NCBI RefSeq assembly: GCF_965363235.1
Contig: NC_134847.1
Location: 70,173,664-70,237,663, forward strand
Length of the DNA stretch: 64,000 bases
Origin: Mytilus galloprovincialis
Taxonomy: Eukaryota
Direction: 5' to 3'
Notes under the pieces: model-generated
Seen by the model: the letters and a program-made list of their open reading frames with translations, nothing else
Told to the model about the DNA's origin: nothing
The model's database searches: none
Shown: piece by piece, positions 6,414-47,848 of the stretch
Position numbering within the stretch: position 1 is the stretch's first letter
Layout of the letters: every line of letters starts with the position of its first letter
Made by a program: the position numbers and the translations under genes

Positions 6414-6651
6414 TTTATATGCTGCTTCTTTCAAAATACTAAGAAGGCCAATGTATGCAATGCACTTGACCCATAATATATGAAATAGTGCCATAGATTG
6501 GGTGACACAAAACTTATTTTAAGTCTTTGACAGTTATGTCAATAGATGTGTTTCTTTACAATATTTTCAGCTCTTGAACAGTCAGTGTCTATAAAGTTAC
6601 AAATAAAAGCTTGTTTATATGCCTTTTCTCATCTGATGATTAAATTTTCAG

Positions 6652-7283
6652 AGGAGAGAATATAGGGATAGAATCTGTCCAGGCTGCTGTGAAATCCTAC
6701 AAAGTAAGCACTACTAGTAATGGGAGAATTGATACGGAAACAGATAGGAATAAAGATAGAAATTTCTCATCCTTTTCACCTCCTTCATTTGGATCTAATG
6801 AAGAGCAGAGATATAGAAAAAATATAAAGGAGGAAGAAAGAAGGCAAGAGGAACAAAAAAGAATGATTTATCACAGTACCAAGGAAGACAGAGGAAGGGA
6901 TGATGAAAAGAAAAAGAGAACATTAAATAAAGAAGGGTTGAAGGAGCAGAGGTGTGAAAGAAAAAGGCAGGATGATGAAGCCAGATGGAGAGAAGAAATA
7001 AGGCAAGAGGAACAAAAACGAATTATTGATCACAGTACTATGGAAGACAGAGGAAGGGAAGATGAAAAGCGTTCTGAAAAGAAAAGGAGAACGTTAGATC
7101 AAGAAGGGTTGGAGAGACAACAGTGTGAAAGAAGAAGACAGGCTAATGAATCCAGGTGGAGAGAAGAAATAAGGCAATTGGAACTAGAAAATAAACAGAA
7201 ACTAGAAGAAAATGAAAGAGAGAGAGAAAAGATAAGAAATGAAAGAAGAGCTGCTTTCGTTGAAAGAAAAACAAAAAGAAATG
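6652..7283 (+). CDS. Candidate exon ending in phase 1, encoding a Glu/Arg/Lys-rich charged-repeat region with an internal repeat of about 55 aa (…EERRQEEQKRMIYHSTKEDRGRDDEKKKRTLNKEGLKEQRCERKRQ…)
   Basis: Acceptor ttttcag at 6651 and only one open frame (ORF 6689..7369). The donor ATG|GTATGAG at 7284 leaves a 1-nt overhang that completes an Ala codon with the first two bases of the 8041 exon. The sequence is purine-rich and low-complexity, so the open frame may be compositional. Confidence 0.3.
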
Positions 7284-8040
7284 GTATGAGTGAATTAAGT
7301 ATATATATTTTAAGTATTCCAAATATTGGAAATTTTTCAAATGGTCAGTTCATTGTGTGTTTAAATTAGTGGAAGCTGTTTTTACCATTGAATGATACAT
7401 GCATTTGTATGTGGAAAATTTTATGTCTTAGTATAGATGAGAGTACAGAAGGAAACTTTAGAATTTTCAATCAGCCATCACCTTGAACAAACTGTTGTGA
7501 TCAAATTGCAATTGTTTTCCATTCAGAAGTTTAGGCCCTTAAAGAAAGAATTTGTTGTAATTCAAAATTTATTTGCTTAGTTTCAAATGAGAGGTAGATT
7601 ATACCAATTGCAATTGATTTCAAAACTGATGACACCATGGCAAAAACAAAAAGGACCTAAAGACAGATAACAGTCTACAAAACTCACAAAAAAGAAAACC
7701 AAAACAAAAATCTTCCTTTTGTGAGGCCATAGAAAAAGATATCTTCTATTATGCTTTCTCTACCATTTCTTTGTTTTGGGAAGCTACCCTAAAGATTGGG
7801 GGTATATTTGAATGAGTGCTATTAAAATGACAATATGTACTCTATGTATTCAATACAAAAAAAATGCCCTAATTTTTTATCTTATGTAACAGGACCCACA
7901 AATATCATTTCAATTGGCCTAAAGCAAAATGTTATACCACAAACAACAACAATACTTTATTTTAATGATCACTTTTAATTTTGTAACCAGTAGTATTGAT
8001 TGTAAAATTAAGTCCTCTCATTTTATGTTGTATATTATAG

Positions 8041-8442
8041 CTGAACAGGCAGCCAGGTCACCAGTTTACAGAAGAGAAAAAATACAAGACTTACTATTGT
8101 TAGATGTCACACCACTGTCGCTTGGTATAGAAACAGGCAATTGTCACATGACACCTGTTATCAAACGTAATACAACAGTTCCTACTAGAAAGAGTCAGAC
8201 GTTCACTACTTCAGAGGACTACCAGATCAGTGTGTTAATTCAGGTTTATGAAGGGGAGAGAACTTTGACCAAGAACAATAACTCTCTGGGAAAATTTGTT
8301 CTGACTGGAATACCTGCTGCACCGAAAGGGGTACCTCAGATTGTTGTCACCTTTGATATTGATGCCAATGGTATTTTGACAATTTCTGCAGAAGATACAC
8401 TTACTGGAAAGAGGAATAGCCTTACCATTACCAATGACAAAG
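8041..8442 (+). CDS. HSP70-family exon, copy 1: the C-terminal end of the nucleotide-binding domain ('QAA'), the linker DLLLLDV, and the substrate-binding beta domain through ITNDKG
   Basis: Translation (A)[134 protein letters not shown] aligns with canonical HSP70 (…[38 protein letters not shown]…[11 protein letters not shown]…ITNDKGRLS). Acceptor tattatag at 8040 and donor AAAG|GTAGGG at 8443, phase 1 to 1. No nucleotide-binding-domain exon lies upstream in the window. Confidence 0.7.
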
Positions 8443-8924
8443 GTAGGGATTTTTATGCCCCACCTACAATAGTAGGGGCATTATGTTTTCTGGTCTGTGC
8501 ATTCATTCGTCTGTCTGTCCCACTTCAGGTTAAAGAGTTTGGTCAAGTTGACGTCCAATCAACTTGAAACTTTGTACACATGTTTCCTATGTACAATGGT
8601 ATCTTTCTACTTTTAATGCCAAATTAGATTTGTGACCACAATTTCAAGGTCCACTGAACATTGAAAATGATAGTGCGAGTGGGGCATCCGTGTACTATGG
8701 ACACATTCTTGTTAATGATTAGTTGACTACAAATGCCAAAAAATACAGCATTACTGTTTGTTTTGCAGTTCTTCATCTTTTTGTCATTATATAATCCTAA
8801 AATATCAATTATAACTTTATCATAATAACAAAAGAATCTTTAATAGTGAGGAAATTGGGAATATATTGCAATGAAAATTACTGTTGATGTTGATTTTTTT
8901 ATTTTTATTAACTTTGTTCTTTAG

Positions 8925-9458
8925 GTCGTTTGGGGTCAAAAGAAATAGATAAAATGGTCAATGAAGCAGAGAAATTCAAGGCTGAGGATGAACAACAGGA
9001 AAATTGTATGTCTACAAAGAATGCTTTGAAAGGCTATGCACTTAACATGGTATCAGCAATTGATTTTGAAAAACATGAAGTTTACAGAATCGAAAAAATA
9101 CAAGACCTACTTTTGATAGATGTCACTCCAATATCTCTTGGTATAGAAACAGTCTGTGGTCATATGACACCTGTTATCAAACGTAATACAACAGTTCCTA
9201 CTAGAAAGAGCCAGACGTTCACTACTTCAGAGGACTACCAGATCAGTGTGTTTATTCAGGTTTATGAAGGGGAGAGAACTTTGGCCAAGAACAATAACTC
9301 TCTGGGAACATTTGTTCTGACTGGAATACCTGCTGCACCAAAAGGGGTACCTCAGATTGTTGTCACCTTTGATATTGATGCCAATGGTATTTTGACAATT
9401 TCTGTAGAAGATAAGATTACTGGAAAGAGAAATAGTTTTAAAATTACCAATGACAAAG
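8925..9458 (+). CDS. HSP70-family fused exon: the start of the lid ([25 protein letters not shown]…AIDFEK) joined in frame to a second copy of the substrate-binding beta domain (…[42 protein letters not shown]…ITNDKG)
   Basis: Acceptor ttctttag at 8924, a continuous open frame of 534 nt, and donor AAAG|GTAAGG at 9459, phase 1 to 1. The second domain is about 90% identical in nucleotides to 8060-8442. The LRG|gt donor present in the 11364 copy is absent, so lid and domain are fused. Confidence 0.6.
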
Positions 9459-9628
9459 GTAAGGATTTTTAATTATTAGTTGACCACAAATGTCAAAAAT
9501 TGTCATACAGTTCTTAATCTTTTTGTCATTATATAATCCTAATATATCAATTTTAACTCTATCATAATAACAAAAGAATAATGAGAAAATTCAGAATATA
9601 TTACAATAAAATTTACTGCTGATTTTTT

Positions 9629-11342
9629 TATACGACAGCAAAAAATGAAATTTTTTTGGTGTATATTGGTATCAGGTTGGCGTCGTCGTCATCGTCCGAA
9701 GACATTTGGTTTTCACACTCTAACTTTAGTAAAAGTAAATAGAAATCTATGAAATTTAAACACAAGGTTTATGACTATAAAAGGAAGGTTGGGATTGATT
9801 TTGGGTGTTTTGGTTCCAACAGGTTAAGAATTAAGGGCCAAAAAGGGCCCAAATAAGCATTTTCTTGGTTTTCGCACAATAACTTAAGTATAAGTAAACA
9901 GAAATCTATGAAATTTTAACATAAGGTCTATGAACACAAAAGGAAGGTTGGGATTGATTTTGGGAGTTTTGGTCCCAACGAATTAGGGGCCAAAAGGGTC
10001 CAAGATTAAACCTTGTTTGATTTCATCAAAAAATGAATTATTAGGGTTGTTTGATATATGCCAAATCTAACCGTGCATTCAGATTCTTAATTTTTGGTCC
10101 TGTTTTCAAATTGGTCTCTCACAAACATGTTTAACCCCGCCGCATTTTTGCGCCTGTCCCAAGTCAGGAGCTTCTGGCCTTTGTTAGTCTTGTATCATTT
10201 TAACTTTTAGTTTCTTGTGTACAATTTGGAGTTTAGTATGGCGTTCATTATCACTGAACTATTATATATTTGTTTAGTGGCCAGCTGAAGGACACCTCCG
10301 GGTGCGGGAATTTCTCCTTGCATTGAAGACCTGTTGGTGACCTTCTTCTGTTGTCTGCTCTGTGGTTGGGTTGTTGTCTCTTTGGCACATTCCCCATTTC
10401 CATTCTCAATTTTATCTACATTTAGGTCCAAAGGGTCCAAAATTAAACTTAGCTTGATTTTAACAAAAATTGAATTCTTGGGGTTCTTTGATATGCTGAA
10501 TCTAAACATGTACTTAGATTTTTGATTATGGGCCCAGTTTTCAAGTTGGTCAAAATCGGGGTCCAAAATTATTATATTAAGTATTGTGCAATAGCAAGTC
10601 TTTTCAATTGCGCAATGGCAAGAAATATCTAATTGCACAGTATTGTGCAATAGCAAGAAATTTTCAATTGCACAGTTGTTGGAAATCATGCACTGAAGAG
10701 AACAGTATTATGCAATAGCAAGAAATCTTCAATTGCACAGTACTGCGCAATAGCAAGAAATATCTCATTGCACAATATTGCGCAATAGCAAGAAATTTTC
10801 AATTGCACAGTTTTGGGCGATAGCAAGAAATATTCAATTGCACAGTATTGTCCTGTTTTCAAATTGGTCTACATTAAGGTCCAAAGGGTCAAAAATTAAA
10901 CTTTGTTTGATTTCAACAAAAATTGAATATATGGGGTTCTTCAATATGCTGAATCTAACCATGTATTTAGATTTTTAATATTTGGGCCCGGTTATCAAAT
11001 TGGTCCATATTGAGGTCTAAAGGGTCTAAAATTGAACATTATTTGATTTCATCAAAAATTGAATTCTTGGGGTTCTATGATATACTGAGTCTAACCATGT
11101 ATTTAGATTTTGGATATTGGACCATAATAGGTAAATGTCCAATTTGAAATTTTTAAGTTTTTAAGTTTAAGTTCTTAGACCACATTCATTCTGTGTCAGA
11201 AACCTATGTTGTGTCAACTATTTAATCACAATCCAAATTCAGAGCTATATCAAGCTTAAATGTTGTGTCCATACTTGCCCCAACTGTTCAGGGTTCGAAC
11301 TCTGCGGTCGTATAAAGCTGTACCCTGCGGAGCATCTGGTTC
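9629..11342. mobile_element. Composite non-autonomous element of about 1.7 kb. It has a terminal hairpin tatacgacagc…, a CGT microsatellite, about 160-bp A-repeats, about 85-bp B-repeats (ggtccaaagggtccaaaattaaac…gatatgctgaatctaac…), about 36-bp C-repeats (gtattgtgcaatagcaagaaattttcaattgcacag), and a conserved tail …ccccaactgttcagggttcgaactctgcggtcgtataaagctgtaccctgcggagcatctggtt
   Basis: It lies in the intron of the second HSP70 duplicate. The matching intron of the first duplicate (8880-8924) lacks it, which gives an empty-site comparison. The right end carries TGCGGTCGTATA, the reverse complement of the left-end TATACGACCGCA. A 280-bp SINE-like element is nested at about 10120-10400. The minus-strand ORF 10207..10689 is spurious. 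Confidence 0.75.
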
Positions 11343-11363
11343 AATTTTAACTTTGTTCTTTAG

Positions 11364-11519
11364 GTCGTTTGGGGTCAAAAGAAATTGATCAAATGGTCAC
11401 TGAAGCATACAAATATCAGGCTGAGAATAAACAACATAGAAAATGTATTTCTGCAAAGAATGCTTTGAAAGGCTATACACTTAACATGGTATCAGCAATT
11501 GAATTTGAAAAACTCAGAG
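11364..11519 (+). CDS. HSP70-family lid exon, copy 2 ([52 protein letters not shown])
   Basis: Acceptor ttctttag at 11363 and donor AGAG|GTAAAT at 11520, phase 1 to 1. It is a paralogue of 8925-9082. Confidence 0.6.
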
Positions 11520-12307
11520 GTAAATTGAAAATGGATTGCAATGTAAAAAGAATGCTACAATGTGCAAATGGATGACTGTGCTACTAGAGCGTGAGTGATG
11601 AGGATATAATGGATTATATATATAGTGCTGAGCCATTATTGAACAATGACTTTCAGTCAACTATTGGAGCTTGAAGTGAAGTCATCAGGGGATATGCCAA
11701 GTTACTCATAGTAACACCTCAAAATAGATCACAGAAAACTGAGATCATTGTAAGCCTTCTAAATGTCATTTGCTGCAGTGCAGTATTATGGAATGGCTTG
11801 GCCTCGATTTGGTGGTGTGTAAATATTTTTGTATCAATAAAAATGTTTGTTGACTGCTGAAAAATGAATTAAAATTAAATTTAGCAATTTCTTTCTCTGT
11901 TTTTAATTTGTACTCCAAACCTAATACAAATGTAAAGGAACTGATAATTCCAACAAGGACCAAAAGTAAAGACAAACCCAGTAGATTTGTTATAATTGTA
12001 GTCAAATAAACAAATAACCAGTAATGAAATTTCCCCTCTATCATAAGAACAAAGGGAAGTAACTCACACCTTGTTTACTTCAAGGGAAATAACCTATTGA
12101 TTAAAGTTACAATTGTTATTAGCTGATTACTAGTATATATTAGTCACTTATAATCCTGTATATTGCATCATTTTACTAAAATTCACATGTCATTTATTAC
12201 TCATGTCATGTGTTGCCTGGATCAATTTACTATTTATAATATAGTATCAAATATGAAATTATTACTCTGGGAATGGAGCTATATAACATTCACTTTGTCT
12301 GCAATGT

Positions 12308-12452
12308 CCATTGGTCACTTCATTCACCTTGTCTTTCCATTGGTCACTTCATTCACCTTGTCTTTCCATTGGTCACTTCATTCACCTTGTCTGTCCATTG
12401 GTCACTTCATTCACCTTGTCTTTCCATTGGTCACTTCATTCATCTGTTTGTT
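12308..12452. repeat. Tandem repeat with a 29-bp unit (ccattggtcacttcattcaccttgtcttt), about 5 copies, in an intron
   Basis: Direct periodicity. ORFs 12163..12570 and 12311..12514 reflect it. Confidence 0.85.
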
Positions 12453-14700: not shown

Positions 14701-15595
14701 TAAAAAAAATCAAATTTAAGATTTTCTAATATTTCTTCTGAAATTTGTGTTTTTCTACACATGCTACATAGCTTTCTTTAAATTAATACTAAAATACTTA
14801 TAATTACATCTAACTTCTATGTCATTTGGTCTCTGGTGGAGAGTTGTCTCATTTTCAATCATACATATTTTCTTTTTTTTTATCTTTAAGCTTTAACATT
14901 TCCTCTTAAAGATTTAAGGGGAGATAAGAACAATATTTCAAAAGATGAGAGATTTTAGATTATCTCCCATGGAAACTTATTAAAATCTTATTGTAATTTT
15001 ACATATGTTTCACTGAATAGAACCTGTTTAAATTCAAACTGGTGTCTTATTCTTAGGAATATAGAAGCTTAGTTTGGACATTTTTATAGCAATTCTAAAA
15101 TTCTCATTACCTTTTTGAATGACACTTCACAATGACAATTTGTATAGAAACTTTTTAAAGATACAATTTTATATGACCATTAAAGTGGAGTTTTATAGAA
15201 ATAAATAATGATAAAAAAAAGTTTTAAAGATAAAAGAAATAAAAGTTTTATAGAATTGAAAGTATCCTTTATATTCTCACCTTGCACTCTGATGTCTTGA
15301 CTTTATTTTTTATTGCAATTCTGAATTGGGTTAAATTTCATACGATTTGAAGAGGCTGATTTGATAAAACAAATTGCAACTGGGTCACAATTTTAAATGA
15401 CCTGCTATAAGTTGAGCAACACATGCAGTCTATTCACAGTAATATCATTATTTAGGCAAAACAAAGACTCTAGTAAGACATTTATGTGTGTCCACACTTG
15501 TATCTGTTTTAACTAGAAAAAGCGCTCATCCATGAAGTTATAACACTTATGATCTGACTTTTTTTACTGAGTAGGTATTTTGATTTCTGTAAAAA

Positions 15596-15805
15596 CTACT
15601 CGGGAACAAGATCACACCTGAGGCTGTTTATTCATGTGTGAAGGGTTCCATAATAATGTACCTTTAACAGTTCAACAGAGGACTGATAGATTGAAAACTA
15701 CTCGGGAACAAGATCACACCTGAGGCTGTTTATTCATGTGTGAAGGGTTCCATAATAATGTACCTTTAACAGTTCAACAGAGGACTGATAGATTGACCAG
15801 TGTTA
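15596..15805. repeat. Tandem duplication of a 105-bp segment
   Basis: 15596-15700 and 15701-15805 are near-identical. ORF 15736..15954 overlaps the duplication. Confidence 0.85.
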
Positions 15806-16250: not shown

Positions 16251-17192
16251 TTATACAACCATTAAAAATTTTTGTGGTCGTATGTTGGTATCATGTCGTC
16301 GCCCGCGTCGCCTGAAAAGACATTAAGTTTACAGACAGTAACTTTGATTTTTAAGTGAATGGATCTCTTTGAAATTTAAACACAAGGTTTGAGACCACAA
16401 AAGAAAGGTTGGAATTGATTTTGAGGTTTATGGTCCCAACAGTTTAGGAAATAAGGGCCTTTAAAGGGGTCAAAATAAGCATTTTTATAAATTTTCAGAC
16501 AATAACTTGTAAGTGTATGGATCTTTTTGAAATTGTACTACAAGGTTCCATACCAAAAAAGGAAGGTTGGGATCGATTTTGGGGGTAATGGCCCTAACCG
16601 ATTAGGAATAATTAAGGGGCTAAAAACAATACTTTTCTAATACTTTGTGTAAATTACTTATTTCTTGACCAATTTCAATGGGATTATATTTTTGAATTTT
16701 TGGGGTTCTTTAATATGCTGAATTTAACAATGTATTAAGTTTTGGATTTTTGGCCCCATTTTTAAATTGAGGTTTAAAGGGTCCGAAATTAAACTTTATT
16801 TGATGGCATCAAAAATTAAATCATTGGGGTTCATTGATATGCTGAATATAACCGTGTATTTAGATTTTTGATTTTTGGTCCCATTTTCAAATTTGGTCTA
16901 CATTAAGGTCCAAAGGGTCCAAAATTAAACTTTGTTTCATTTCATCAAAAATTGAATTATTGGGGTTCTTTGATATGCTGAATCTAACGATGTATTTAGA
17001 TTTTGATTTTTGGGCCCTGATATCATATTGGTCCACATAGAGGTCAAAGGGGTCCAAAAGGTAAATGTCAAATTTAAAAAAATTAAGTTCTTAGACCACA
17101 TTCATTCTGTGTCAGAAACATATGCTGTGTCAAATATTTAATCACAATCCAAATTCAGAGTTGAATCAAGCTTAAATGTTGTGTCCATACCA
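16251..17192. mobile_element. Composite element of the same family as 9629-11342, truncated at its tail
   Basis: Left hairpin ttatacaaccattaaaaatttttgtggtcgtat, then a CGT microsatellite, A- and B-repeats and part of the conserved right arm. It ends within …gttgtgtccatacc. Confidence 0.7.
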
Positions 17193-17914
17193 GGGCTTCC
17201 AAAAAATATTTGAGCCAGCCGGACATTTTATATCTGATCCTGATTTTAATCCCTTAAAACTAAGTTGCAAAAGGCAATAATGTTAATCAGATGGCCATCC
17301 CAGTGATTGACATTAGATTAAAAAAAAAAAAACGATATTTAACTTTATTTTGATATGAATTTGATGTTCTTAAGTAAACTGTTAAATTGGCAGTGCATCA
17401 TTCGAAGTGTGCATATCACCGTGCTCATATCTGCTGCATTAGACTCTTTATTTGTGCAAAACATTATGGACTCCATACTTACCCCAACTGTTCTGTTTGA
17501 ACAAATATTTTACTGTCATCATGTTGGGCACCTTATTTCTATCCTCACTTAAAAGACCCAAGTATCAAGAAAATATTGTGCTTAAACACTTTAATATATA
17601 TATTTCTTAAAGGGGCACTAGCTGCCAAATTCATGGTCACTGATTTGACTCAAATTCTCATATTTTATTTAAAACAATGTAAAACATTTTTCCAAACCAT
17701 CAAAAGTATAAAATAAACAATTTACAGAACATGGTCTCAATAAGATGTAGCTTCATTTTGTGTAAATTTTAGCCAAGACGCCATCTAATTAACAATCGAG
17801 TTGACCTTATATGACCATATAAGCGATGTAAACATAAACATGGATATAAATAGATGAAGCAACTCGTGCAATTGGATTTTTAAAGGTCTGTTAAATTTTG
17901 TATTATAGATTAAA

Positions 17915-19390
17915 AATTTATGTTTATCGTCGTTTTTATGACGGCGTCGTTGTTGTCGTACGAAGACACATTGGTTTTTCGCACTATAACTTTAGTTTAA
18001 CTAAATAAAAATCTATGAAATTTAAACACAAGGTTTATGACCACAAAAGGAAGGTTGCGATTGATTTTGGAAGTTTTGGTCCCAACAGTTTAGGAATTAG
18101 GGGCCAAAAAGGGGCCCAAATAAGCATTTTATTTGGTTTTCGCACAATAACTTTAGTATAAGTGAATAGAAATTTATGAAATTTAAACACAAGTTTAAGG
18201 AACACAAAAGGAAGGTTGTGATTGATTTTGGGAGTTTTGGTCCCAACAGTTTAGGAATAAGGGGCCAAAAAGAGGCCCAAATAAGCATTTTTCTTGGTTT
18301 TCGCATCATAACTTAGTACAAGTAAATAGAAATCTATGAAATTTAAACACAAGGTTTATGACCATAAAAGGAAGGTTGGGATTGATTTTGGAAGTTTTGG
18401 TCCCAACAGTTTAGGAATTAGGGGCCCAAAGGAAAATTAAACTTTGTTTTATTTCATCAAAAATTGAATAATTGGGGTTCTTTGATATCCCTAATCTAAC
18501 TGTGTATGTAGATTCTTAATTTTTGGTCCCGTTTTCAAGTTGGTCTACATTAAGGTCCAAAGGGTCCAAAATTAAACATAGTTTGATTTTAACAAAAATT
18601 GAATTCTTGGGGTTCTTTGATATGCTGAATCTAAACATGTACTTAGATTTTTGATTATGGGTCCAGTTTTCAAGTTGGTCCAAATCGGGGTCCAAAATTA
18701 AACTTTGTATGATTTCAACAAATATTAAATTCTTGGGGTTCTTTGATATGCTGAATCTAAACATGTACTAAGATTTTTGATTATGGGCCAAGTTTTCAAG
18801 TTGGTCCAAATCAAGGTCCAAAATTAAATTTTGTTTGATTTCAACAAAAATTGAATCCTTGGAGTTTTTTGATTTGCTGAATCTAAACATGTATTAAGAT
18901 TTTTGCTGATAGGGCCAGTTTTCAAGTTGGTCCAAATCGTGGTCCAAAATTTAAACTTTGTTTGATATCAACAAAAATTGAATATGTGGGGTTCTTTGAT
19001 ATGTGCTGAATCTAACCATGTATTTAGATTTTTTATATTTGGGCCCGGTTATCAAATTGGTTCACCTTGAGGTCTAAAGGGTCCAAAATTGAACTTTATT
19101 TGATTTCATCAAAAATTGAATTCTTGGGGTTCTTTGATATGCTGAATCTTACCATGTATTTAGATTTTGGATATTGGACCATAATAGGTAAATTTCCAAT
19201 TTAAAATATTTAAGTTTTTAAGTTTAAGAACACATTCATTCTGGGTCAGAAACCTATGTTGTATCAACTATTTAATCACAATCCAAATTCAGAGCTGTAT
19301 CAAGCTTGAATGTTGTGTCCATACTTGCCCCAACTGTTCAGGGTTCGAACTCTGCGGTTGTATAAAGCTGTGACCTGCAGAGTACTGGTT
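17915..19390. mobile_element. Composite element of the same family, with a degenerate left end
   Basis: Three A-repeats, about nine B-repeats, and the conserved tail …ccccaactgttcagggttcgaactctgcggttgtataaagctgtgacctgcagagtactggtt. The minus-strand ORFs 18097..18309 and 18516..18764 are spurious. Confidence 0.75.
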
Positions 19391-23745: not shown

Positions 23746-24819
23746 AGCATTGAGAATGGAAATGGGGAATGTATGAAAGAGACAACAACCCAATCAATGA
23801 GCAGAAAACAGCCGAAGGCCACCAATGGGTCTTCAACACAGTGAGAAAAAAACCTTCACGGGAGGCAGTCTCTAGCTGGCCCCTAAACAAAAATGTGTAC
23901 TAGTTTAGTGAAAATGGACTTTATACCAAACTCCAAAACATATAAATGAACTTATATTAAGAAACATACAAGACTAACAAAGGCCAATGGCTCATGACTT
24001 TGGACACATGCAAAAATGTGGCAGGGTTCACATGTTAAGTGTGATCTTAACCCTCCCCCTATACTTCTAGCTAATGTAGAAAAAACAACCACACAACAAT
24101 ACCCACAGTATGTCAGTTTCATGAAATGTCAATGAAACAGCAATCCAACAATACAATTCAACCAAAAAATGAGTATCCAGTGGCAAATATTACATGTATA
24201 TATATATGAATAGGAATGGAACCAACAATCTTCTGAGCTCAAAGCAAGCAGGCAATTGTGATATAACTGATGAAAATCACTAATATCAGACAGAAGATAT
24301 GAAAGAGACATTCAAAAATAGTTAGTTCAAGAAAAAGATAGACATTTATGAACACCAAATGCAAAAGTTCTTATAACATAGAAAATAAGATGGAATCATG
24401 TCCTCATATAGATTGGATCTAATGTGAAAGATTTTTATGACCATAAGTTGAACCAACAATTAAAGGTCATTTGAATTTGTATAATGGATGATCATGACAA
24501 AATTGTTCACAGAAATGAGAAAATGTGGTATGAGAGCCAATGAGACAACTCTCCAACCAAGTCACAATTTATAAAAGTATACCATTATTGGTTAAAGTAC
24601 AATCCAACACAGAGCCTTGGCTCATACCGAACTGCAAGCTATAAAGGGCCCCAAAAATAACTGGTGTAAAACCATTCAAAAGGGAAAACCAACTGTCTAA
24701 TCTATATAAAAATGAGAATCACTTATGAACCACATCAACAAACAACAACTACTGAACATCAGATTACTGACTTAGGACTGGTGCAAACAATTGCAATGGG
24801 TTTAAATGTTTTAATAGGT

Positions 24820-25329: not shown

Positions 25330-25848
25330 GTAAGTAATATTACTTAAGTAACAAAGTAACAAAACTAAATACAAACACGTTGAAATGACAATGTACAACA
25401 AATTAAAGGTAAAGAAAAACTTTTATTTGTTTGTACTTTAATTTCCTTTTATTACATGCATTTAATTTGCTGTCTACAAATTTTAAATTTCACTAAAAGA
25501 CGAGATGTTCTCCTACACTTCTGTAATTACAAGGCAAGATATAAGAAACACTACGAGTCATCTGTACAATGGAAACATTTGAAGGAACTAAAATATGCAA
25601 GAACCACATCCAAAATATTTTTGTTGGATTTTACTGTCCAGTCAAGCAAGGAAAAAAATCATAAAATTATGCATTTCAATAAATTAATTTTGCTGGAGAT
25701 GTTTCATTGTATATAATATGTGGAAAAAGAGAGAGGATATCAAAGGGCACTAAAACATAGTTCTAATAAAAATGACAAAATCATGACCAAAATGAAAACT
25801 GATGAAAAGACAAATACAAACATGTATAATTAACAAAACACTTCACTG

Positions 25849-25975
25849 AAAGTTTTAACTTGGGTGAACCTAGGGATGGAAAGTTTTAACTTGGGTGAAC
25901 CTAGGGATGGAAAGTTTTAACTTGGGTGAACCTAGGGATGGAAAGTTTTAACTTGGGTGAACCTAGGGATGGAAA
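25849..25975. repeat. Tandem repeat with a 31-bp unit, 4 copies (aagttttaacttgggtgaacctagggatgga)
   Basis: Direct periodicity. Confidence 0.9.
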
Positions 25976-26122
25976 GTTTCTGCTGCATTAGTGGCAACAT
26001 TCAAGTTACTCATTGTAAGTTAAAAGTTTTGAAGTTTAGCTAATAATTGTTTAATCAAATCACATTAATTTATTGTATTGAATGTATTGATTCTAACTTA
26101 TTCTCTAAGCTTATGATTTTAG

Positions 26123-27027: not shown

Positions 27028-29150
27028 TATACGACTGCAAGCGTCGTCCAAAGACACTTAGTTTCCGAATAATAACTTTAGTTTAAGTGAATGGATTTCT
27101 ATGAAATCTAAACACAAGGTTAACAACCACAAAAGGCAGGTTGGATTAATTTGGGGGTTATGGTTCCAACAGGTTAGGAACATGGGCCCAAAAAGGGGTC
27201 AAAATAAGTATTTTTCTAGTTTCCAGACAATTACTTGTGTGTAAGTGTATGGATCTTTCTGAAATTGTACCACAAGGTTTCATTCCATAAAAGGAAGGTT
27301 GGGATTGATTTTGGGGGTTATGGCCCAAACTGTTTCGGGATCAGGGGCCAAAAAGGGGCAGAAAACAATACTTTTCTAATACTTTGTATAAATTGCTTAT
27401 TTCTTGAACAATTTCAAGGGGTTTTATTTTTGAATTCTTGGGGTTCTTAAATATGCTGAATCTAACCGTGAATTAAGTTTTTGGAATTTGGTCCCTGTTT
27501 ATAAATTGGTCCACATGAGGTCTAAAGGGTCCAAAATTAAACTTTGTTTGATATCATAAAAAATTGAAAGATTGAGGTTCTTTTATTTGCCAAATCTATT
27601 CAATGACATGTATTTAGATCTTTAATTTTTTAATTTTTTCAAATAGGTCTACATTAAGGTCCAAAGGGTCCAAAATTAAACTTACCTTGATTTTAACAAA
27701 AATTGAATTCTTGAGGTTCATTGATATGCTGAATCTAAACATGTGTTTAGATTTTTATACGGCCGCAAAAATTATAATTTTTTTTGTCGTATATTGGTAT
27801 GATGTTGGCATCTGTGTCGTCGCCGTCCGAAGACATCTGGTTTTCACACTATAACTTTAGTATAAGTCAATAGAAATCTATGAAATTTAAACACAAGGTT
27901 TATGACCATAAATGGAAGGTTGGGATTGATTTGGGGAGTTTTGGTCCCAACAGTTTAGGAATTAGGGCCCAAAAAGGGCCCAAATAAGCATTTTTCTTGG
28001 TTTTTACACAATAACTTTAGTATAAGTAAACAGAAATCTATGAAATTTTAAAATAAAGTTTATGACCACAAAAGGAAGGTTGGAATTGAATTTGGGAGTT
28101 TTGGTCCCAACAGTTTAGGAATTTGGGCCAAAAGGGTCCAAAATTAAACTTTGTTTGATTTCATCAAAAAATGAAGTATTGGGGTTCTTTGCTATTCCAA
28201 ATCTAACCGTGTATTCAGATTCTGAATTTTTGGTCCTGTTTTCAAATTGGTCTACATTAAGGTCCATAGGGTCCAAAATTAAATTTAGCTTGAATGTAAC
28301 AAAAATTGAATTCTTGGGATTCTTTGATATGCTGAATCTAAACATGTACTTAGATTTTTGAATATGGGCCCAGTTTTCCAGTTGGTCCTAATTGGGGTCC
28401 AAAATTATTATTTTAAGTATTGTGCAATAGCAAGAAATTTTCAATTACGCATTATTGCACAATAGCAAGAAATCTTGAATTGCACAGTATTGTGCAATAG
28501 CAAGAGATTTTCAATTGCACAGTATTGCACAATAGCAAGAAATTTTCAATTTCACAGTATTGTGCAATAGCAAGAAATCTTCAATTGCACAATAGCAAGA
28601 AATTTTCAATTGCACAGTTTTGCACAATAGCAAGAAATATTCAATTACACAGTATTGTCCTGTTTTCAAATTGGTCTACATTTAAAAGGTCCAACAGGTC
28701 AAAAGTTAAACCTTGTTTGATTTCAACAAATATGAATATATGGGGTTCTTCAATATGCTGAAAGGAACCATTTATTTACATTTTTAATATTTGGGCCCTG
28801 TTATCAAATTGGTCCACATTGAGGTCTAAAGGGTCCAAAATTGAACATTATTTGATTTCATCAAAAATTGAATTCTTGGGGTTCCATGATATGCTGAATC
28901 TAACCATGTATTTAGATTTTGGATATTGGACCATAATAGGTAAATGCCCAATTTAAAATTTTTAAGTTTTTATGTTTAAGTTCTTAGACCACATTCATTC
29001 TGTGTCAGAAACCTATGTTGTGTCAACTATTTAATCACAATCCAAATTCAGAGCTGTATCAAGCTTAAATGTTGTGTCCATACTTGCACAAACTGTTCAG
29101 GGTTCGACCTCTGCAATCGTATAAAGCTGCACCCTGCAGAGCATCTGGTT
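27028..29150. mobile_element. Two adjacent composite elements of the 9629 family, 27028-27763 and 27764-29150
   Basis: Hairpin starts tatacgactgcaa at 27028 and tatacggccgcaaaaatt…ttgtcgtata at 27764. The second ends with the conserved tail …gcagagcatctggtt at 29150. The minus-strand ORF 28115..28345 is spurious. Confidence 0.7.
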
Positions 29151-29550
29151 GATTATGGGCCCAGTTTTCAAGTTGGTCCAAATTGGGGTCTTAAATCAAA
29201 CTTTGTTTGATTTCTACAAAAACTGAATATATGGGGTTCTTTGATATGCTGAATCTAACCATGTATTTAGATTATTGATATTTGGACCCTGTTATCAAAT
29301 TGGTCCACATTGAGGTCAAAAGGGTCCAAAATTAAATTTTTTTGATTTCATCAAAAATTGAATTCTTGGGATTCTTTGATATGCTGAATTAATCCATAGC
29401 CATGTATTTAGATTTTGGATATTGGACCATAATAGGTTAATTTAAATTCAGAGCTGTATCCAGTTTGAATGTTGTGTCCATACTTGCCCCAACTGTTCAG
29501 GGTTTGACATCTGCGGTCGTTTAAAGCTGTACCCTGCGGAGCATCTGGTT
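29151..29550. mobile_element. Additional fragment made of B-repeats plus the conserved right arm and tail
   Basis: …ccccaactgttcagggtttgacatctgcggtcgtttaaagctgtaccctgcggagcatctggtt ends at 29550. Confidence 0.6.
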
Positions 29551-31214: not shown

Positions 31215-31860
31215 GTCTTCATGCCCTTCAGACAGTTTTCACTTGACCTTGACCTCATTTCATGCATCAGTGAACAAGATTAAGTTTTGATGGTCAAGTC
31301 CATATCTCAGATACTATAAGCAATAGGTCTAGTATATTCGGTGTATGGAAGCACTGTAAGGTGTAGATGTCCAACTGGCAGGTGTCATCTGACCTTGACC
31401 TCATTTTCATGGTTCAGTGGTTATAGTTAAGTTTTTGTGTTTTGGTCTGTTTTTCTTATACTGTATGCAATAGGTCTACAATATTTGGTGTATGGAATGA
31501 TTGTAAGGTGTACATGTCTAGCTGGCAGGTGTCATCTGACATTGACTGCATTTTCATGGTTCAGTGTTCAAAGTTAAGTTATGAATTTTGGTCTTTTTTT
31601 CTAATACTTTATGCAATAGGTCAACTATATTTAGTGTCTGGAAATATTTTATGATCCTTGTGTCAGTTGCGAGGTTTTATTTGACCTTGACCTCATTTTC
31701 ATGATTCATTGCTCGGTGTTATGTTTATATGTTTTGGTCTGTTTTTCTTAAACAATAAGCAATAGGTCAACTATATTTGTTGTATGGAAGAATTGTTAGC
31801 TGTACATGCCTGCCTGGCATGGTTCATCTGACCTTGACCTCATTTTCATTGTTCATTGGT
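31215..31860. repeat. Tandem array with a unit of about 130 bp, about 5 copies (…tgaccttgacctcattttcatggttcagtg…ttttggtctgtttttcttatactgtatgcaataggtc…), in an intron
   Basis: Direct periodicity. Related fragments occur at 19975-20075 and 20345-20410. ORFs 31442..31654 and 30930..31118 are not supported. Confidence 0.8.
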
Positions 31861-33119
31861 CTATGTTTAGTTTTCTTGGGTAATGTTAAGTTTATGTGAC
31901 AGTTGTAATAAAGCTTAATATTTAGGACTATCAACATAATATCAATGATTAGTTAAGAAGGCGAGACATTTGAGCCTGTGCACTCTTGTTTTTGTAAGGA
32001 TAGGCATAGGTTACACTGTACTTACATTGAGTATGAACCACTGCTTGAGAATATTATTTCAAACGGATTCAATCCATTTAGTAGTCTAGTTCAATATTGG
32101 CATGATTCGAAATATCAAGTTTCAATTCACTTAAGGAGAAGGTTCAATTTTGGGTTTTTACCCTAATATCATATATATTTCATGCTTTCTCAATTTAGCA
32201 GAATAAGGAGGTGATTTTTAAATTTTTATTAAACTGGGCAGTTATAAAATGCCAATGAATATGGTTAAATGGCAAACTAATCTAAAATCTTGACTATAAG
32301 TATTTGACATGGACTTACGAAGAATTAATTAGAGCACAACCGTCACCAAAACAAAACTCATGCAGCTGGTTAATCAAGAGAGGCAAAAGGAACATTTAAA
32401 CTCAAAAGTCGAAAAATAAACCATGGTTAAAAGGACAAACAGACAAACAGCAGTATACAAAACATAGAATAAATGGAAATTAAGGGGGCTCCTGGGTAAA
32501 AATCAAATTTGTTTTCTAATTTAGGATTTCGCTATATCTTTTTATAAATAAACTTTATCATATACTTAAAAGAAAAATGAAATAAAAAAATGGGGTCACC
32601 GTTCATTTAAGCTCACAATCTGCCTCCGGAAGAAGCATACATTTTTGTTAATGCCCTTTTTTTCTGTTGAGCTAATAGGAGAAATAGAGGTAATATCGAA
32701 ATAAAAAAATAACCTAATTACAGAAATCGCTTAAATTTTACAATTATTTAGTTTATGTACAGCTTATTTGAAAACAATAATAAGAAATATAGGTCACCGA
32801 TGAGTTAAAAAAGATATTTCAAATTTAATGCCAAAAAATGGCATTTTTGCACCAAAGGGAGATAATTTGGAGCTTTTTCAATGATATAAACATTTTAAAA
32901 GTCATCTGGAGCCAAATCGAATCGATTTTTTTGGGTTGATTTTTGTACCATATCATAAAGTAATAACTAATAGTGTAATAAATAAAATTTGTAATGAAAA
33001 AAAAAAAGGTTTAATTTTTTGCTGAAATTTTTGTACCCACGAGCCACCTTAAGCATCTTGGAGGGCTGACACTTATTGAAACTATTTAATTTCAAGCTAA
33101 GTACAATATTCTATTTCAG

Positions 33120-34569: not shown

Positions 34570-36661
34570 TTATACGACCGCAAAAATTTTAATTTTTTGG
34601 TCGTATATTGCTATCACGTTGGCGTCGTCGTCTGCGTCGTCGTCGTCGTCGTCCGAATACTTTTAGTTTTCGCACTCTAACTTTAGTAAAAGTGAATAGA
34701 AATCAATGAAATTTTAACACAAGGTTTATGACCACAAAAGGGAGGTTGGGATTGATTTTGGGAATTTTGGTCCCAACATTTTAGGAATAAGGGGTCAAAA
34801 AGGGCCCAAATAAGCATTTTCTTGGTTTTCGCACTATAACTTTAGTTTAAGTGAATAGAAATCTATGAAATTTTGACACAAGGTTTATGACCACAAAAGG
34901 AAGGTTGGGATTGATTTTGGGAGTTTTGGTTCCAACAGTTTATGAATTAAGGGCCAAAAAGGGGCCCAAATAAGCATTATTTTTGGTTTTTGCACCATAA
35001 CTTTAGTATAAGTAAATAGAAATCTATGAAATTTAAACACAAGGTTTATGACCATAAAAGGAAGGTTGGGTTTGATTTTGGGAGTTTTGGTCCTAACAGT
35101 TTAGGAATAAGGGGCCCAAAGGGTCCAAAATTGAACTTTGTGTGATTTCATCAAAAATTGAATAATTGGGGTTCTTTGATATGCCGAATCTAACTATGTA
35201 TGTAGATTCTTAATTTTTGGTCCCGTTTTCAAATTGGTCTACATTAAGGTCCAAAGGGTCCAAAATTAAACTTAGTTTGATTTTAACAAAAATTGAATCC
35301 TTGGGGTTCTTTGATATGCTGAATTTAAAAATGTACTTAGATTTTTAATTATTGGCCTAGTTTTCAAGTTGGTCCAAATGGGGGTCCAAAATTAAACTTT
35401 GTTTGATTTCATCAAAAATTGAATAAATGGGTTCTTTGATATGCCAAATCTAACTGTGTATGTAGATTCTTAATTTTTGGTCCAGTTTTCAAATTGGTCT
35501 ACATTAAGGGTCCAAAATTAAACTAAGTTTGATTTTAACAAAAATTAAATTCTTTGGCTTATTTGATATGCTTTAATATCTAAATATGTACTTTGATTTT
35601 TGATTATGGGCCCAGTTTTCAAGTTGGTCTAAATCAGGATTCCATATCAAGTATTGTGCAATAGCAAGAAATTTTCAAGTGCACAGTATTGCACAATAGC
35701 AAGAAATATCTAATTGCACAATATTGTGCAATAGCAATTAATTTTCAATTGGAGTTATCTTTCTTTGTATAGAATAATAGTTGATAATATATGTTGGAAA
35801 TTTGCCAGACATGACTATGATGTCATTTTCTATTTTTATTTGCCAAAAACTTTATGTAAATAACTTCATTGGAAATTTGCCAATATAAAATGTTGCTGAT
35901 GAAGCTTTTTTTCCTTATCTTATCTAAAATGTTTTTAGATAATGTATGTTGGACATTTGCCAGACATGACTATGATGTCATTTTCTATTTTTATTTGCCA
36001 ATAACTTTATGTAAATAACTTCATTGGAAATTTACCAATATAAAATGTTGCTGATGAAGTTTTTTTTATTGTTTTATACAATAAACAATGTATATTCACT
36101 TTTACTACCAACCAATCTTTACCATTCAGTGATAACAAGCACTTTATTTTACATATTAATATTTTATGATGTATTTAAAAGAGTAGTTATTGTTGCAAAC
36201 TCCATTAGAAATTTGAATTGATATCAGTTTTGGAAAAAGGGAAACGTGGATGTGAAAAAAAAGGGGGGGGTTTAAATTTTTCTCATTTCAGATTTCATAA
36301 ATAAAAAGAAAATTTCTTCAAACATTTTTTTGAGAGGATTAATATTCAACAGCATAGTGAATTGCTCAAAGGCAAAAAAAAACTTTTAAGTTCATTAGAC
36401 CACATTCATTCTGTGTCAGAAACCTATGCTGTGTCAACTATTTAATTTTAGATTTAAAAAGTTTGAAGAAGAAATCTTTAATTGATTTGTAAAATCTTGA
36501 CATTTGTTTTGTGTAAAAAAAAACCATGTAATGTCAAAAATTTGATCACAATCCAAATTCAGAGCTGTATCACGCTTGAATGTTTTGTCCATACTTGCCC
36601 CAACTGTTCACGGTTCAACCTCTGCGGTCGTATAAAGCTGCGCCCTGCGGAGCACCTGGTG
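34570..36661. mobile_element. Composite element of the 9629 family, about 2.1 kb. Its right arm (36388-36661) is split from the rest by unrelated sequence
   Basis: Left hairpin tatacgaccgcaaaaattttaattttttggtcgtata, then a (CGT)n microsatellite, three A-repeats, B-repeats and three C-repeats. The tail is …ctctgcggtcgtataaagctgcgccctgcggagcacctggtg. Confidence 0.7.
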
Positions 36662-37175: not shown

Positions 37176-39814
37176 TATAGTTGTTTATATTGGTAATTTT
37201 TATTTATTTTTTTGTATGTATTTACCATTTATTTGTACAGTTTAATGAATTTGTACTATAGTTGTGACTGCATGGCTCACTAGAAAATTGTTAGCTGTCA
37301 GGAATGTATATACAGTTGAGAAAAGTTTATTCTTCAGTGTAAACTAAAACTCTTACTGCAATAGAGATCAGTCTATGGCTTGGCTTGTTGCAAGTTTGAA
37401 AAAATCAGTCCCTATCCTTAATAAGGAATTTTCAGTGACCATCAAAATAACATACTTTTGTTAATTATTGAATATGTTTGTGTCCTAGATGTACATGAAA
37501 TATTTACCACAGGTCATTATGGATACGACAATCAATAAATCATGCCATATTTGTATAAAATACTTCTTAATTTATTTCCTATGATTTTCAAAAGACATTT
37601 GAGATACATGAACATATTTGCCTGTCTTTGTTTAAGTGCTTCAGGATATTGATTTGATACAGATCAAGATCGAATTTTAGTTGGGTCTTATGATTATTAG
37701 CAGAATTGTGGTCCTTGACAGGCTAGTGCTATAGTAGTCCGACTGCAAATGGACAACTTAGATTGATTGATTGATTGTTGATTGTTGGTTGCTTTTAGAA
37801 CATCCAGACATCTGAGACACTGTAAGATGAATATATATGCCCAACAAGAAACAATGACCAAAATGAAATTAGCTGGCTGATCAGTATATGGTTGCCCCTG
37901 TCAACTGATACAATTATTAACTCAGGAACATATATATTGAGATATACTGTTTCCAGATTTTCTGTGGCTAGACCTTGATCTTTTTTTTTTAAATGTCCAT
38001 GTAATCAAATTTATAGGTGAGAAATGCAGGTGTCAAATTATGTAATTGGATATTGCCTGATAAAATGATACAAGTAATATCAGAATTTCATTCCATTGAT
38101 AAAGTTAAAACCCAATTACTGCCATGTCAAACGTTCAAGAAATTGATTCATTTGAAGAAAGATGTCTTCCGTTATTTTTCCCCAATGAAAATTTAATGTT
38201 GATACATATTTAAAAACTGTGCAATCTACTTCTTGTCTTGAATTCATATCACCAAACGTATTTGTTTGGTGAGGATGAATTCATATATTTTCATGGCTCT
38301 AGATTATGGTTGAAAAAAAGGTTTTATTAAAAAAAAATATAACAATATTTGGCATGATTGCCAGTGAGAAAAACTCCTGCAAAGACCAAATGACTTAGAA
38401 GTTAAAAGCTACAGGTCATCCTATGTTTTGTTTTTGGTTACCTGTTACATCTATCTCTCACAAATCTACAATCATGAATTACAGCGAGGCAAAAGATACC
38501 AAAGGTAGAAAATAAGCTGACAATGCCATGGCTGAAAAAAAAGAATAAATGAAATAAACAACAGAACAGAAAGTATAACATAGAAAACTAAAGAATGGAC
38601 AACATGAACCCTAACAAAAGCTGGGGGTAATTTCAAGTTCTTAAAGGTACAACATTGTCAAAGGTAAAAGGTAATGCAAGGATCATAATTAAAGTATAAC
38701 CAAATATTGGTTTTAAGTTGCAGGACATTAAAAGAAATAATGAAAAATATTTTCTTTAATTATGTAAATTTAAGTTCACTTTATTTAATAAATGTATTTG
38801 TTTATGTATGAAAAAAAAGGTTATCATACACTAGAAATGATTTTGGATATTTAAATCTTTTCATCGACCGGAATACTTTAAACCTAGAATACAGATGCCC
38901 TATATTCTGATGTTTGCACCAATCAATCATCGTTTGTTCTTGACCTCATTTTCCTAGTACAGTGGCTCATTCAAAAGTCTCAGTAATTTTTTTTCTTGAC
39001 AGTAACTTTAGACACATAGTTCGAGACTTAGGAATAATAATCTGCCGTTGCCAAAAAAACTTCGTATACAGCTTAATTTTCAGAGGTTAGAGGCCTGGAT
39101 GCTGGATTTTTTTTTTGAGCCATGGCCTTTTAAGTTTACTTTCGACTTATGAGTTTCAATGACCCATTGGTATCACTGGCCCCTCTTGTTTTCATCTTGT
39201 ACAAAGATCTATCGTTTTCAGTTCTTCGTAATTGGCCTTGGTTCAGTAACTGGTGAGAAAAAATGGCTTTGTTTTGTTAAGTGATTTTCGCATGGACTCT
39301 GACGGCTTCATTGATAACTGGTCAATAGTTTTTAAAGCAATTGCTTTTATGCTATCGCGTATGGCCATCTTTGTGACCCAGATCAGAGACTCCGCCCATA
39401 TCAAGCCATAGTATTTTGTTAAACAGGCTCCTGGTCTGTCATTCTTTAACACCTATGTATGTTTTCTAATGCAATACATAGCTTGAAACTTTAAAAAAAC
39501 GTTAGTGGATTTAAGAAGTTTCAGAATACGTTCTTGTAGATGTATTTTTGTATTTAAAGGGTCAACCGTTTGACTATCAAATAACATAGAAGTCCGAGTG
39601 AAAAAAAGTACATTTTTATAACTGCGATTCCGTTTTCCGCCGTTCGTACGATGTTTCAACAAAATATGGATTCATTTCAGTTGTTGATTTAGTATTGAAA
39701 ATTTAACTGAATTACCTCCTATTAAATACGGTTTTTAACCGGATTTTTGTGACAAAAATGTCGGTTATTGATTTGGGGATGTACGGCGGGCGGCCGGGCG
39801 GTCGGGCGGGCGGC

Positions 39815-40580
39815 AATCAAATGTTGTCCGTGCATTAACTCATGAACCGTTCAACCAAAGCTTTTAAAATTTTAATATGTTATTCCTGACAACTATACGA
39901 AGGTCAAGTTCAATAATGGCGATTTTGACTTTTACCGTTCAGGAGTTATGGTTCTTGAAAGATTGAAAAATGCAGTTGTCCGTGCATTTACGCATGAACT
40001 GTTCTACCAAAGCTTCCCAAATTTTAATATGTTGTTACTAATGAAAGAATGGAGGTCAAGTTCAATAATGACAAATTTGACTTTTATCGTTCAGGAGTTA
40101 TGGTTCTTGAAAGATTGAAAAATGGAGTTTCCAGTCGTGTCCGTGCATTTATGCATGAACTGTTCTTCCAAAGCTTCCGAAATTTTAATATGCTGTTACT
40201 GATGACAAAATGGAGGTCAAGTTCAATAATGACGATTTTGACTTTTACCGTTCAGGAGTTATGGTTCTTGAAAGATTGAAAAATGGTTTTTCCCGTCGTG
40301 TCCGTGCATTTTCTCATGAACCATTCAACCAAAGCTTTTGAAATTTTAATATGTTGTTACTGATGACAAAATAGAGGTCAAGTTCAATAATGACGATTTT
40401 GACTTTTACCGTTCAGGAGTTATGGTTCTTGAAAGATCGTAAAATGGTGTTTCCATTCAGGTTGTTGCATTTACTCATGAACCATTCAATCTAAGCTTTT
40501 CAAATTTTAATATGTTGATACTGATGACAAAATGGAGGTCAAATTTGATATTGACGATTTTCACTTTCACCATTCATCAG
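39815..40580. repeat. Tandem array with a 150-160-bp unit, about 5 copies (ccgtgcatt.actcatgaac.gttc.accaaagcttt.aaaattttaatatgttgttactgatgacaaaatggaggtcaagttcaataatgacgattttgacttttaccgttcaggagttatggttcttgaaagattgaaaaatg…)
   Basis: Direct periodicity. It is preceded by a GC-rich (CGGGCGG)n run at 39782-39820. ORF 40049..40279 is a repeat artefact. Confidence 0.85.
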
Positions 40581-47235: not shown

Positions 47236-47238
<3 letters not shown>

Positions 47239-47266
<28 letters not shown>

Positions 47267-47679: not shown

Positions 47680-47800
47680 CATGTCAACACTTAAGTGTTG
47701 ACTACTGGGCTGGTGATACCCTCGGGGACGAAACGTCCACCAGCATTGGCATCGATCCAGTGGTGTAAATAGTTATCAAAGGTACCCGAATTATAATTGA

Positions 47801-47848
47801 GTACGCCAGACTGACGTTTCGTCTGCATTAGACTCACCAGTAAAGCTC
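47801..47848 (-). ncRNA. Candidate hammerhead ribozyme core with the variant CUGGUGA box. The copy at 48601-48648 is identical
   Basis: Minus strand: gagcuuua-CUGGUGA-GUC-uaaugca-GAC-GAAAC-GUCagucuGGCGU-AC. Helix III (ACGUC/GGCGU) keeps its pairing through compensatory changes compared with other copies. Confidence 0.5.

Follow-up and report, generated by a model that had tools for sequence, protein, structure and literature searches.

[quoted passage not shown] They prefer T-rich targets, produce no target duplication and vary in the count of terminal T residues (PMC4067079). Helentrons, which encode a Rep-helicase-endonuclease, are the partners of DINE-1-like elements (PMC4067079). Thomas, Vadnagara & Pritham 2014 listed mollusc elements as DINE-1-like, including the mussel element of Kourtidis et al. 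2006 (PMC4067079). The latter is a satellite element of mussel HSP70 introns (Kourtidis et al. 2006, Genome 49:1451), as cited in the relevant passages of PMC7492417, PMC3879986 and PMC4067079, and the same passages place it, as MgE, with pearl, DTC84 and Cg_HINE. The first-pass annotation had mentioned satellites and a MITE-like element from such introns, in agreement with these citations. In the oyster, 11 Cg_HINE elements with satellite-like arrays were described by Vojvoda Zeljko et al. 2020; the families differ by their cargo repeats, and MgE was said to be 'of comparable architecture' (PMC7492417).

The 64-kb stretch of DNA analysed here (the window) is AT-rich animal DNA, dense in short tandem arrays, and contains a composite element of 1.4-2.5 kb. 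The element is in all likelihood a non-autonomous Helentron-type rolling-circle transposon (HINE, DINE-1-like) of the bivalve satellite-carrying group, very probably MgE, with which it was compared by description. Elements of this kind are already described in the literature and little new is added to them here. The locus illustrates the abundance, in bivalve genomes, of Helentron-dependent elements that carry and disperse satellite-like arrays, and their presence within mussel HSP70-type introns. In annotation, all six copies, 9629-11341 among them, are to be masked as HINE-type repeat.

Copies, modules and termini of the composite element

Copies were mapped with reference modules and by blastn of 9560-11400 against the window. 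Six copies were found, as the first-pass annotation had proposed with its count of at least six, and all lie on the + strand (Table 1). E-values among the window copies went down to 0.0, and no module match was seen on the minus strand of the window in the module map. The start of the fifth copy, earlier placed at 27764, is at 27756. The order of modules is invariant: 5′ motif and hairpin, (CGT)n, A (160 bp), B (126/136 bp), optional C (35/70 bp) with B′, and a tail of 221 bp, which replaces the 100 bp first assigned to the conserved tail. The number of units per element ranges from 2 to 3 for A, 2 to 6 for B and 0 to 7 for C. The C array (35-bp unit, 70-bp dimer) is confined to c1, c5 and c6 and is followed by two B′ units in c1 and c5. 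The earlier description of the composite, with A, B and C arrays in each copy, is to be corrected in this respect. The copies c2 and c4 represent an older subfamily, in which a 75-bp spacer separates A from B. Relatives of the 285-bp repeat nested in c1 occur at 23749-24036 and 41239-41386, both on the minus strand.

Table 1. Positions of the element copies, of the parts of copy c1 and of the host-gene features in the window.
Feature	Position	Strand	Remarks
Intron 1	8443-8924	+	482 bp; ~200 bp without insert
Second-family element F2, intron 1	8455..8713	+	ATGCCCCAC - 11 nt - GGGGCAT, (GTCT)n, 3′ GTGGGGCAT, 24-nt tail ending CTTG+TT
Paralogous uninterrupted site, intron 1	8894..8924	+	gaTTTTTTT^ATTTTTATTAACTTTGTTCTTTAG; insertion point between 8900 and 8901
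Intron 2	9459-11363	+	1905 bp; ~200 bp without insert
Copy c1	9629-11341	+	intron 2 (9459-11363) of HSP70-like gene; stops 22 nt upstream of 3′ splice site
c1, 5′ subterminal inverted repeat	9629..9640	+	TATACGACAGCA; 1 mismatch to consensus TATACGACCGCA; after 7-T run (9623-9629, includes first T)
c1, inner inverted repeat	9658..9665	+	GGTGTATA (consensus GGTCGTATA); pairs with 5′ motif to give 5′ hairpin; degenerate here
c1, (CGT)n microsatellite	9681..9696	+	c6 counterpart: TRF row 34617-34653
c1, A array	9706..9979	+	~160-bp unit, nearly 2 copies
c1, B array	9982..10567	+	126/136-bp unit; first monomer split by nested 285-bp repeat
c1, nested dispersed repeat	10118..10402	+	285 bp, unrelated to element family; inside B monomer
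c1, C array	10580..10851	+	35-bp unit (70-bp dimer), ~7 copies
c1, B′ array	10852..11123	+	136-bp unit, 2 copies
c1, conserved right flank (tail)	11119..11341	+	91.6-95.1% identity among c1, c3, c5
c1, 3′ subterminal inverted repeat	11303..11314	+	TGCGGTCGTATA, exact reverse complement of 5′ consensus
c1, 3′ tail	11315..11341	+	AAGCTGTACCCTGCGGAGCATCTGG+TT; short imperfect palindrome; terminus CTGG(TT)
Copy c2	16252-~17498	+	75-bp-spacer subfamily; tail broken at 17191-17478; 3′ motif and 3′ end lost
Copy c3	~17906-19390	+	3 A, 5-6 B, without C; degenerate 5′ motif
Copy c4, left part	27028-27755	+	c2-like subfamily spacer; without 5′ hairpin arm
Copy c5	27756-29150	+	nested in c4 B monomer, exactly at end of the monomer's 5-T run
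Copy c4, right part	29151-29550	+	remainder of split B monomer, B, B′, shortened tail
Copy c6	34571-36660	+	end motifs perfect 12/12; 9-bp 5′ hairpin

The two ends carry 12-nt subterminal inverted repeats, TATACGACCGCA and TGCGGTCGTATA, which match the consensus at 12/12 positions in c6 and with 0-2 mismatches in the remaining copies. When ≤2 mismatches are allowed, the motif occurs 11 times against 1.25 expected, and all occurrences are at element 5′ ends, inner repeats or 3′ ends. Five window copies start with TATAC(G/A) directly after a T, and a TATAC start after T is seen in six copies in all. At the other end, five window copies terminate in ...CTGCGGTCGTATAAAGCTGyrCCCTGCrGAGCAYCTGGT(T), and unrelated DNA comes next. 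The 3′ inverted repeat is therein set 25-27 nt inside, and the conserved tail that follows it has its own sharp end in all copies. A motif at one end and its reverse complement plus a tail of ~27 bp at the other had been noticed in the first-pass annotation. The 5′ end of c3 is degenerate and the 3′ end of c2 is lost; otherwise the copies share their boundaries.

The inner repeat, GGTCGTATA, is located 17-19 nt downstream of the 5′ subTIR, and the left flank reads TATACGACCGCA, spacer, GGTCGTATA and (CGT)n microsatellite in this order. In c6 the inner repeat is perfect (34596-34607) and the 5′ hairpin has a free energy of -9.9 kcal/mol (z = -4.5); the hairpin is weaker in the other copies, being degenerate in c1 and lacking an arm, by deletion, in c4. 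The perfect forms of end motif and hairpin arm are those of c6; TATACGACAGCA and GGTGTATA of c1 itself are mutated. At the other end, a palindromic stretch follows the 3′ motif. Three registers of it pair in 97%, 98% and 88% of cells (11 ends, G-T pairs counted). No compensatory change was detected across the 11 ends for any of the three registers, and there was no excess over shuffles. Folds of single copies gave z-scores of -2.8 to +1.3, mostly no better than shuffles, and the palindrome is short and imperfect. The palindrome itself is present; a stem-loop formed by it is putative and weakly supported.

Public metagenome contigs were scanned with the 3′ motif. The scan gave 23 loci, seven of which are true copies (L010, L012, L013, L015, L016, L017, L020); neither the other metagenome loci nor any of the eight viral-contig loci resembled the element. 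All seven copies run into different flanks. CTGGTT is the terminus in 5/7 of them, the exceptions being L016 (CTGGTC) and L017 (CTGATT). When the 12 copies of window and metagenome are taken together, most end in ...GCAYCTGGTT and the last bases deviate in 3. A single T is present at the right end of c6 (CTGGTG) and of L016. The 5′ end of L016 has a five-T run followed by TACACAACCGCA-aaattttt-GCGGTCGTATA, with a 12-bp hairpin arm. The extra internal segment of c6 (35752-36545) is shared at 97-99% with L012 and L015, and since the flanks of those two differ it is subfamily content. Over 833 bp that take in the internal segment 35828-36660, L015 and c6 are 98.7% identical, yet the flank of L015 differs; the subfamily thus moved fairly recently.

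The flanks of the window copies, compared over 150 bp, have no likeness to each other except short AT-rich matches (E ≥ 0.005). Sharp ends together with unrelated flanks, in the window copies and in the seven metagenome copies, indicate that the copies are transposition products and that the composite is a discrete mobile unit, as had been supposed. If the copies were no transposable unit, they could be fragments of a segmental or tandem duplication, or recombination could have spread the satellite arrays; six copies within 27 kb in one orientation would agree with this. This explanation has next to no probability, as the flanks are unrelated, window and metagenome copies from different loci have boundaries identical to the base, one copy lies precisely inside another and a copy is missing from the paralogous intron. 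In place of boundaries varying at every copy, constant boundaries were found.

The host gene and the filled and empty sites

The copy c1 is located in an intron of an HSP70-like gene. Pfam assigned both 8043-8450 and 8927-9460 to HSP70 (PF00012, profile 379-501, E about 1e-46). In tblastn, a full-length HSP70 query matched through residues ~344-552 only, and these were matched twice; the ATPase domain was absent anywhere in the window in this search. From this pattern, the two 'duplicates' are one in-frame internal tandem duplication, with a unit of ~1.03 kb, inside one HSP70-like gene. The duplication named by the first-pass annotation is hence real, with units 90.8% identical overall, and is restricted to one segment of a single gene. 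Exon identity (91-92%) is barely above intron identity (89%), and 13/22 differing codons alter the amino acid, which suggests that the duplicated segment is under little constraint. In a protein-database search with this segment the best matches were generic HSC70s, ~65% identical, and no mussel entry was found. An Rfam scan of 8000-12000 gave one sub-threshold chance match only.

Each of the two introns carries an insert in a T-rich tract beside a splice site, 22 nt before the 3′ splice site in the case of c1 and 12 nt after the 5′ splice site in the case of F2, and such tracts are seen to be hit. The placement of c1 within the intron of the second unit is in accord with the earlier description. 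Both introns share gaTTTTTTT (7 T), after which intron 2 carries the element ending in CTGGTT, followed by caattttaactttgttctttag. The use of intron 1 as the uninterrupted target was right at the homologous point, which is intact. This empty site is approximate: a few substitutions or a 3-bp indel, on the 3′ side, distinguish the two introns in the 25 nt about the junction. Intron 1 is itself not pristine and has elsewhere the HINE-like insert F2, which the first-pass annotation had not listed. The latter is missing from intron 2. Its filled junctions are ggaTTTTT followed by ATGCCCCAC on the left and CTTG followed by TTaatgattag on the right; the empty site in intron 2 is ggaTTTTTaattattag, with ggaTTTTT^aattattag at 9470/9471.

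The third pair comes from c5, inserted precisely within c4. In the five intact B monomers the sequence is tagaTTTTTgattatggg, and the filled site reads tagaTTTT, then TATACGG...CATCTGG, then TTgattatggg. The split B monomer of c4 resumes at 29151 without loss. These three natural filled/empty pairs fix the ends of the elements. The length of the left T-run was preserved in 3/3 pairs (5, 5, 7), and the sole gain is TT at the right end. Insertion points are T^A or T^G at the ends of T-runs.

From the sequence, the terminal TT may equally well belong to the end of the element or be a duplicated TT. The second reading is related to a highly unlikely explanation, that of a MITE, derived by deletion from a cut-and-paste (DDE transposase) DNA transposon and making a TT (AA) target-site duplication. 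Both clean filled sites do have two T more than the empty site, inverted repeats exist, and MITE is the older literature label (PMC3879986), under which pearl, DTC84 and MgE were first described. However, the 3′ inverted repeat is not terminal and is followed by the conserved tail of 25-27 nt, unlike in cut-and-paste elements. Moreover, in c6 and L016, with a single right-end T, the sole candidate duplication (TT in a T-run) is absent, and Thomas et al. 2014, who re-examined such elements, found no target modification and a link to Helentrons (PMC4067079).

The pairs also bear on the time of insertion. As each intron provides the empty site for the insert of the other intron, c1 and F2 both postdate the duplication. 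That c1 was inserted later than the intragenic HSP70 duplication is thus supported by the comparison of the introns, and the inserts give a relative date for that duplication. A younger insertion into a T-rich site had been proposed from the paralogous intron; targeting of T-runs is cleaner from the nested c5.

Relation to described elements and putative mode of transposition

The anatomy of the copies was compared with that of the HINE/DINE-1-like class. SubTIRs within the 11-15 bp range are present at both ends. All copies have the microsatellite after the left flank and then tandem repeats in one orientation. Insertion is T-rich/TT, with variable terminal T. As judged from the sequence, the structural features of the class are found apart from the 3′ stem-loop, which is weakly supported. 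The first assignment to a Helitron/Helentron-type non-autonomous element, made from the asymmetric ends, agrees with HINE/DINE-1-like elements (PMC4067079, PMC7492417), and the features of canonical Helitrons are lacking.

A non-autonomous canonical Helitron is highly unlikely for this reason. No clear target duplication is seen, a palindrome is present near the 3′ end, and the terminus becomes CTGG, which fits CTRR, if the terminal TT is counted as host; all three would be in line with a Helitron. But the 5′ end is (T)ATAC(G) and not TC, the targets are T^A or T^G after T-runs and not A^T, and the endings of the related families in the window are CTTG or CTGTT in place of CTRR. In addition, canonical Helitrons are by definition without subterminal inverted repeats and 5′ hairpin (PMC4067079), both of which the element has.

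Among HINE-type elements, the DINE-1/HINE families of Drosophila, mites and mosquitoes have anatomy and T-rich targeting in common with the mussel element, and for those families the partner Helentron was identified (PMC4067079). Cg_HINE shares the same grammar: a 5′ subTIR of 11-12 bp, a nearby complementary inner repeat of 7-12 bp, a microsatellite, ~160-bp repeats in fixed orientation, and a 3′ subTIR followed by a palindrome (PMC7492417). The mussel element differs from Cg_HINE in its microsatellite, which is a trinucleotide (CGT) and mostly a tetranucleotide (GTCY) in the oyster, in having up to three different arrays and in its long 221-bp right flank. The A and B monomers have no detectable similarity to the oyster Cg170-type monomer. 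Identity of these monomers with Cg170/BIV160 satellites was rejected, as their dimers scored no better than shuffles against the oyster CL1 (Cg170-like) dimer (z -1.5 to 0.8). The elements pearl (CvA, CvE, CvG; Crassostrea virginica) and DTC84 (Donax trunculus), likened by description, have inverted-repeat flanks, 1-6 core repeats of ~160 bp and a microsatellite (PMC3879986); they have been classed as MITE-like, an AA target duplication being given for them.

MgE (Mg1, Mg2, Mg3) of M. galloprovincialis HSP70 introns and the present element are both composite, contain three tandem-repeat families and lie in HSP70-type introns. The element has units of 160, 126+136 = 262 and 2x35 = 70 bp. The abstract of the original report is said to give 169, 260 and 70 bp for the MgE satellites, and it is these lengths, not letters, that are compared. 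On the descriptions and these unit lengths, the element very probably belongs to the published mussel family MgE. Two differences are to be noted. MgE is said, in the part of PMC3879986 that deals with it, to be without a microsatellite, whereas the copies here have (CGT)n. The host gene here is a divergent, partial HSP70-like gene, ~65% identical to HSC70s and without the ATPase domain, and possibly lies outside the set of genes of the 2006 study. The end motifs gave no match in a relevant context in paper texts, only in two unrelated prophage papers.

The element is non-coding: no ORF of ≥75 aa with a Pfam match was present inside the copies, and the ORFs of the arrays are repeat artefacts. 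For Rep/helicase, no gene was found in the window, where there was no long ORF and no Rep/helicase Pfam match among the ORFs tested. The metagenome scan with the 3′ motif returned only non-autonomous copies and no autonomous partner. By analogy with the family, an autonomous Helentron elsewhere in the genome would supply a Rep-helicase-endonuclease in trans. Recognition by this protein would involve, at one end, the 5′ motif TATACGACCGCA and its hairpin and, at the other, the 3′ copy of the motif with the tail of 25-27 nt and its small palindrome. One strand of the element would then be moved and joined at the end of a T-run without target duplication. What is said of the protein, of single-strand transfer and of hairpin function is here taken over from the family. 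The A, B and C arrays would be cargo, whose copy number may shift by slippage or unequal exchange and which the element would spread around the genome.

Orientation and other elements in the window

All HINE-like insertions in the window (9/9) lie on the + strand, six of them from the main family and three from other families. An excess of T-runs on one strand was considered as the cause of the single orientation and was rejected, as A-runs are slightly commoner on the + strand. The elements could transpose locally and strand-locked, with a preference for their own satellite cargo, such that nested self-insertion would make composite multi-satellite arrays and local clusters grow; we regard this as an unlikely proposal. 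The ordinary alternative is that transcription of the host genes biases the orientation.

Arrays at 31311-31873 and 44080-44753 were inspected and the element grammar was not seen in them. Two more elements with the same grammar are located at 39737-40657 and 41732-~45752. In all four families of the window the end consists of a putative stem-loop and then CTKG(T)TT.

Reciprocal insertions in the duplicated HSP70-like introns

Intron 1 of the HSP70-like gene contains, 12 nt downstream of its 5′ splice site, an insertion of a second HINE-like family (F2), unrelated to the main element. Intron 2, which carries the main-element copy c1, is without F2, and thus the two duplicated introns have received reciprocal insertions. 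A relative of F2 with 79% identity (to window 8451-8680) was observed at 50-294 of the marine-metagenome contig L016, on which a main-element copy is also located. Therefore, both families co-occur outside the window.

Within 6644-11530, the HSP70-like gene represents canonical HSP70 solely by residues ~344-552, a segment present as two in-frame tandem copies; the ATPase domain is absent from the gene. The segment is preceded by an E/R/K-rich ORF (6644-7290), for which no match was found in Pfam. Exon divergence between the duplicates is about the same as intron divergence, and their codon differences comprise 13 nonsynonymous versus 9 synonymous changes. Taken together, these sequence comparisons suggest a decaying or chimeric gene.

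One B monomer (126/136-bp tandem-repeat unit) of c1 is itself host to a nested 285-bp dispersed repeat, which is of another kind and has relatives elsewhere in the window.

Further HINE-like families and their orientation

The grammar of the main element was also found in a third and a fourth family, and a 3′ ending, CTKG(T)TT, is shared by all four HINE-like families of the window. All nine HINE-like insertions, spanning 8455-45752, are oriented on the + strand (2 x 0.5^9 = 0.004). Target availability was rejected as the cause of this bias, since on the + strand of the window A-runs are at least as common as T-runs. The shared orientation could reflect a transcription-related bias or local transposition.

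Coordinates and structure of the insertions and short repeats
Feature	Position	Strand	Structure
F2	8455-8713	+	ATGCCCCAC ... GGGGCAT, (GTCT)n, 3′ GTGGGGCAT, 24-nt tail
Third family	39737-40657	+	T-run, then AACCGGATTT, (GGCGGGC)n, 161-bp x4.8
Third family, 3′ end	within 39737-40657	+	AAATCCGGTT + GCTGTCgttgtGACAGC + CTCTTG
Fourth family	41732-~45752	+	T-run, then TATACGCCCGTCaaaattttGACGGGaCGTAT, (GTCY)n, 166-bp x3.5, large internal interruption
Fourth family, 3′ end	within 41732-~45752	+	GTCGGGCGTATC + TGCGCtcatgGCGCA + GCTGTT
285-bp dispersed repeat	10118-10402		ends ...CCATTTCCATTCTCAATTTTAT
Relatives of 285-bp repeat	23749-24036; 41239-41386	-; -	
Tandem duplication	15592-15796		102 bp x2, 100% identical
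Tandem duplication	25848-25979		31 bp x4.3, 100% identical
Tandem duplication	12307-12442		29 bp x4.7, 98% identical

Other repeats in the window

A 61-bp tandem array (1-1727; 27.7 copies, 81% matches) extends past the window start. At 54351-57851, all three + frames run without a stop through a 30-bp minisatellite of ~115 copies, and a YIHGESGYNG-like decapeptide repeat would be encoded in one of them. An ~800-bp direct repeat at 47234-48478 carries an (ATA)11 tract in each copy, together with a 77-aa minus-strand ORF (47448-47678 and 48248-48478) that is identical between the copies. Three short tandem duplications are very young.
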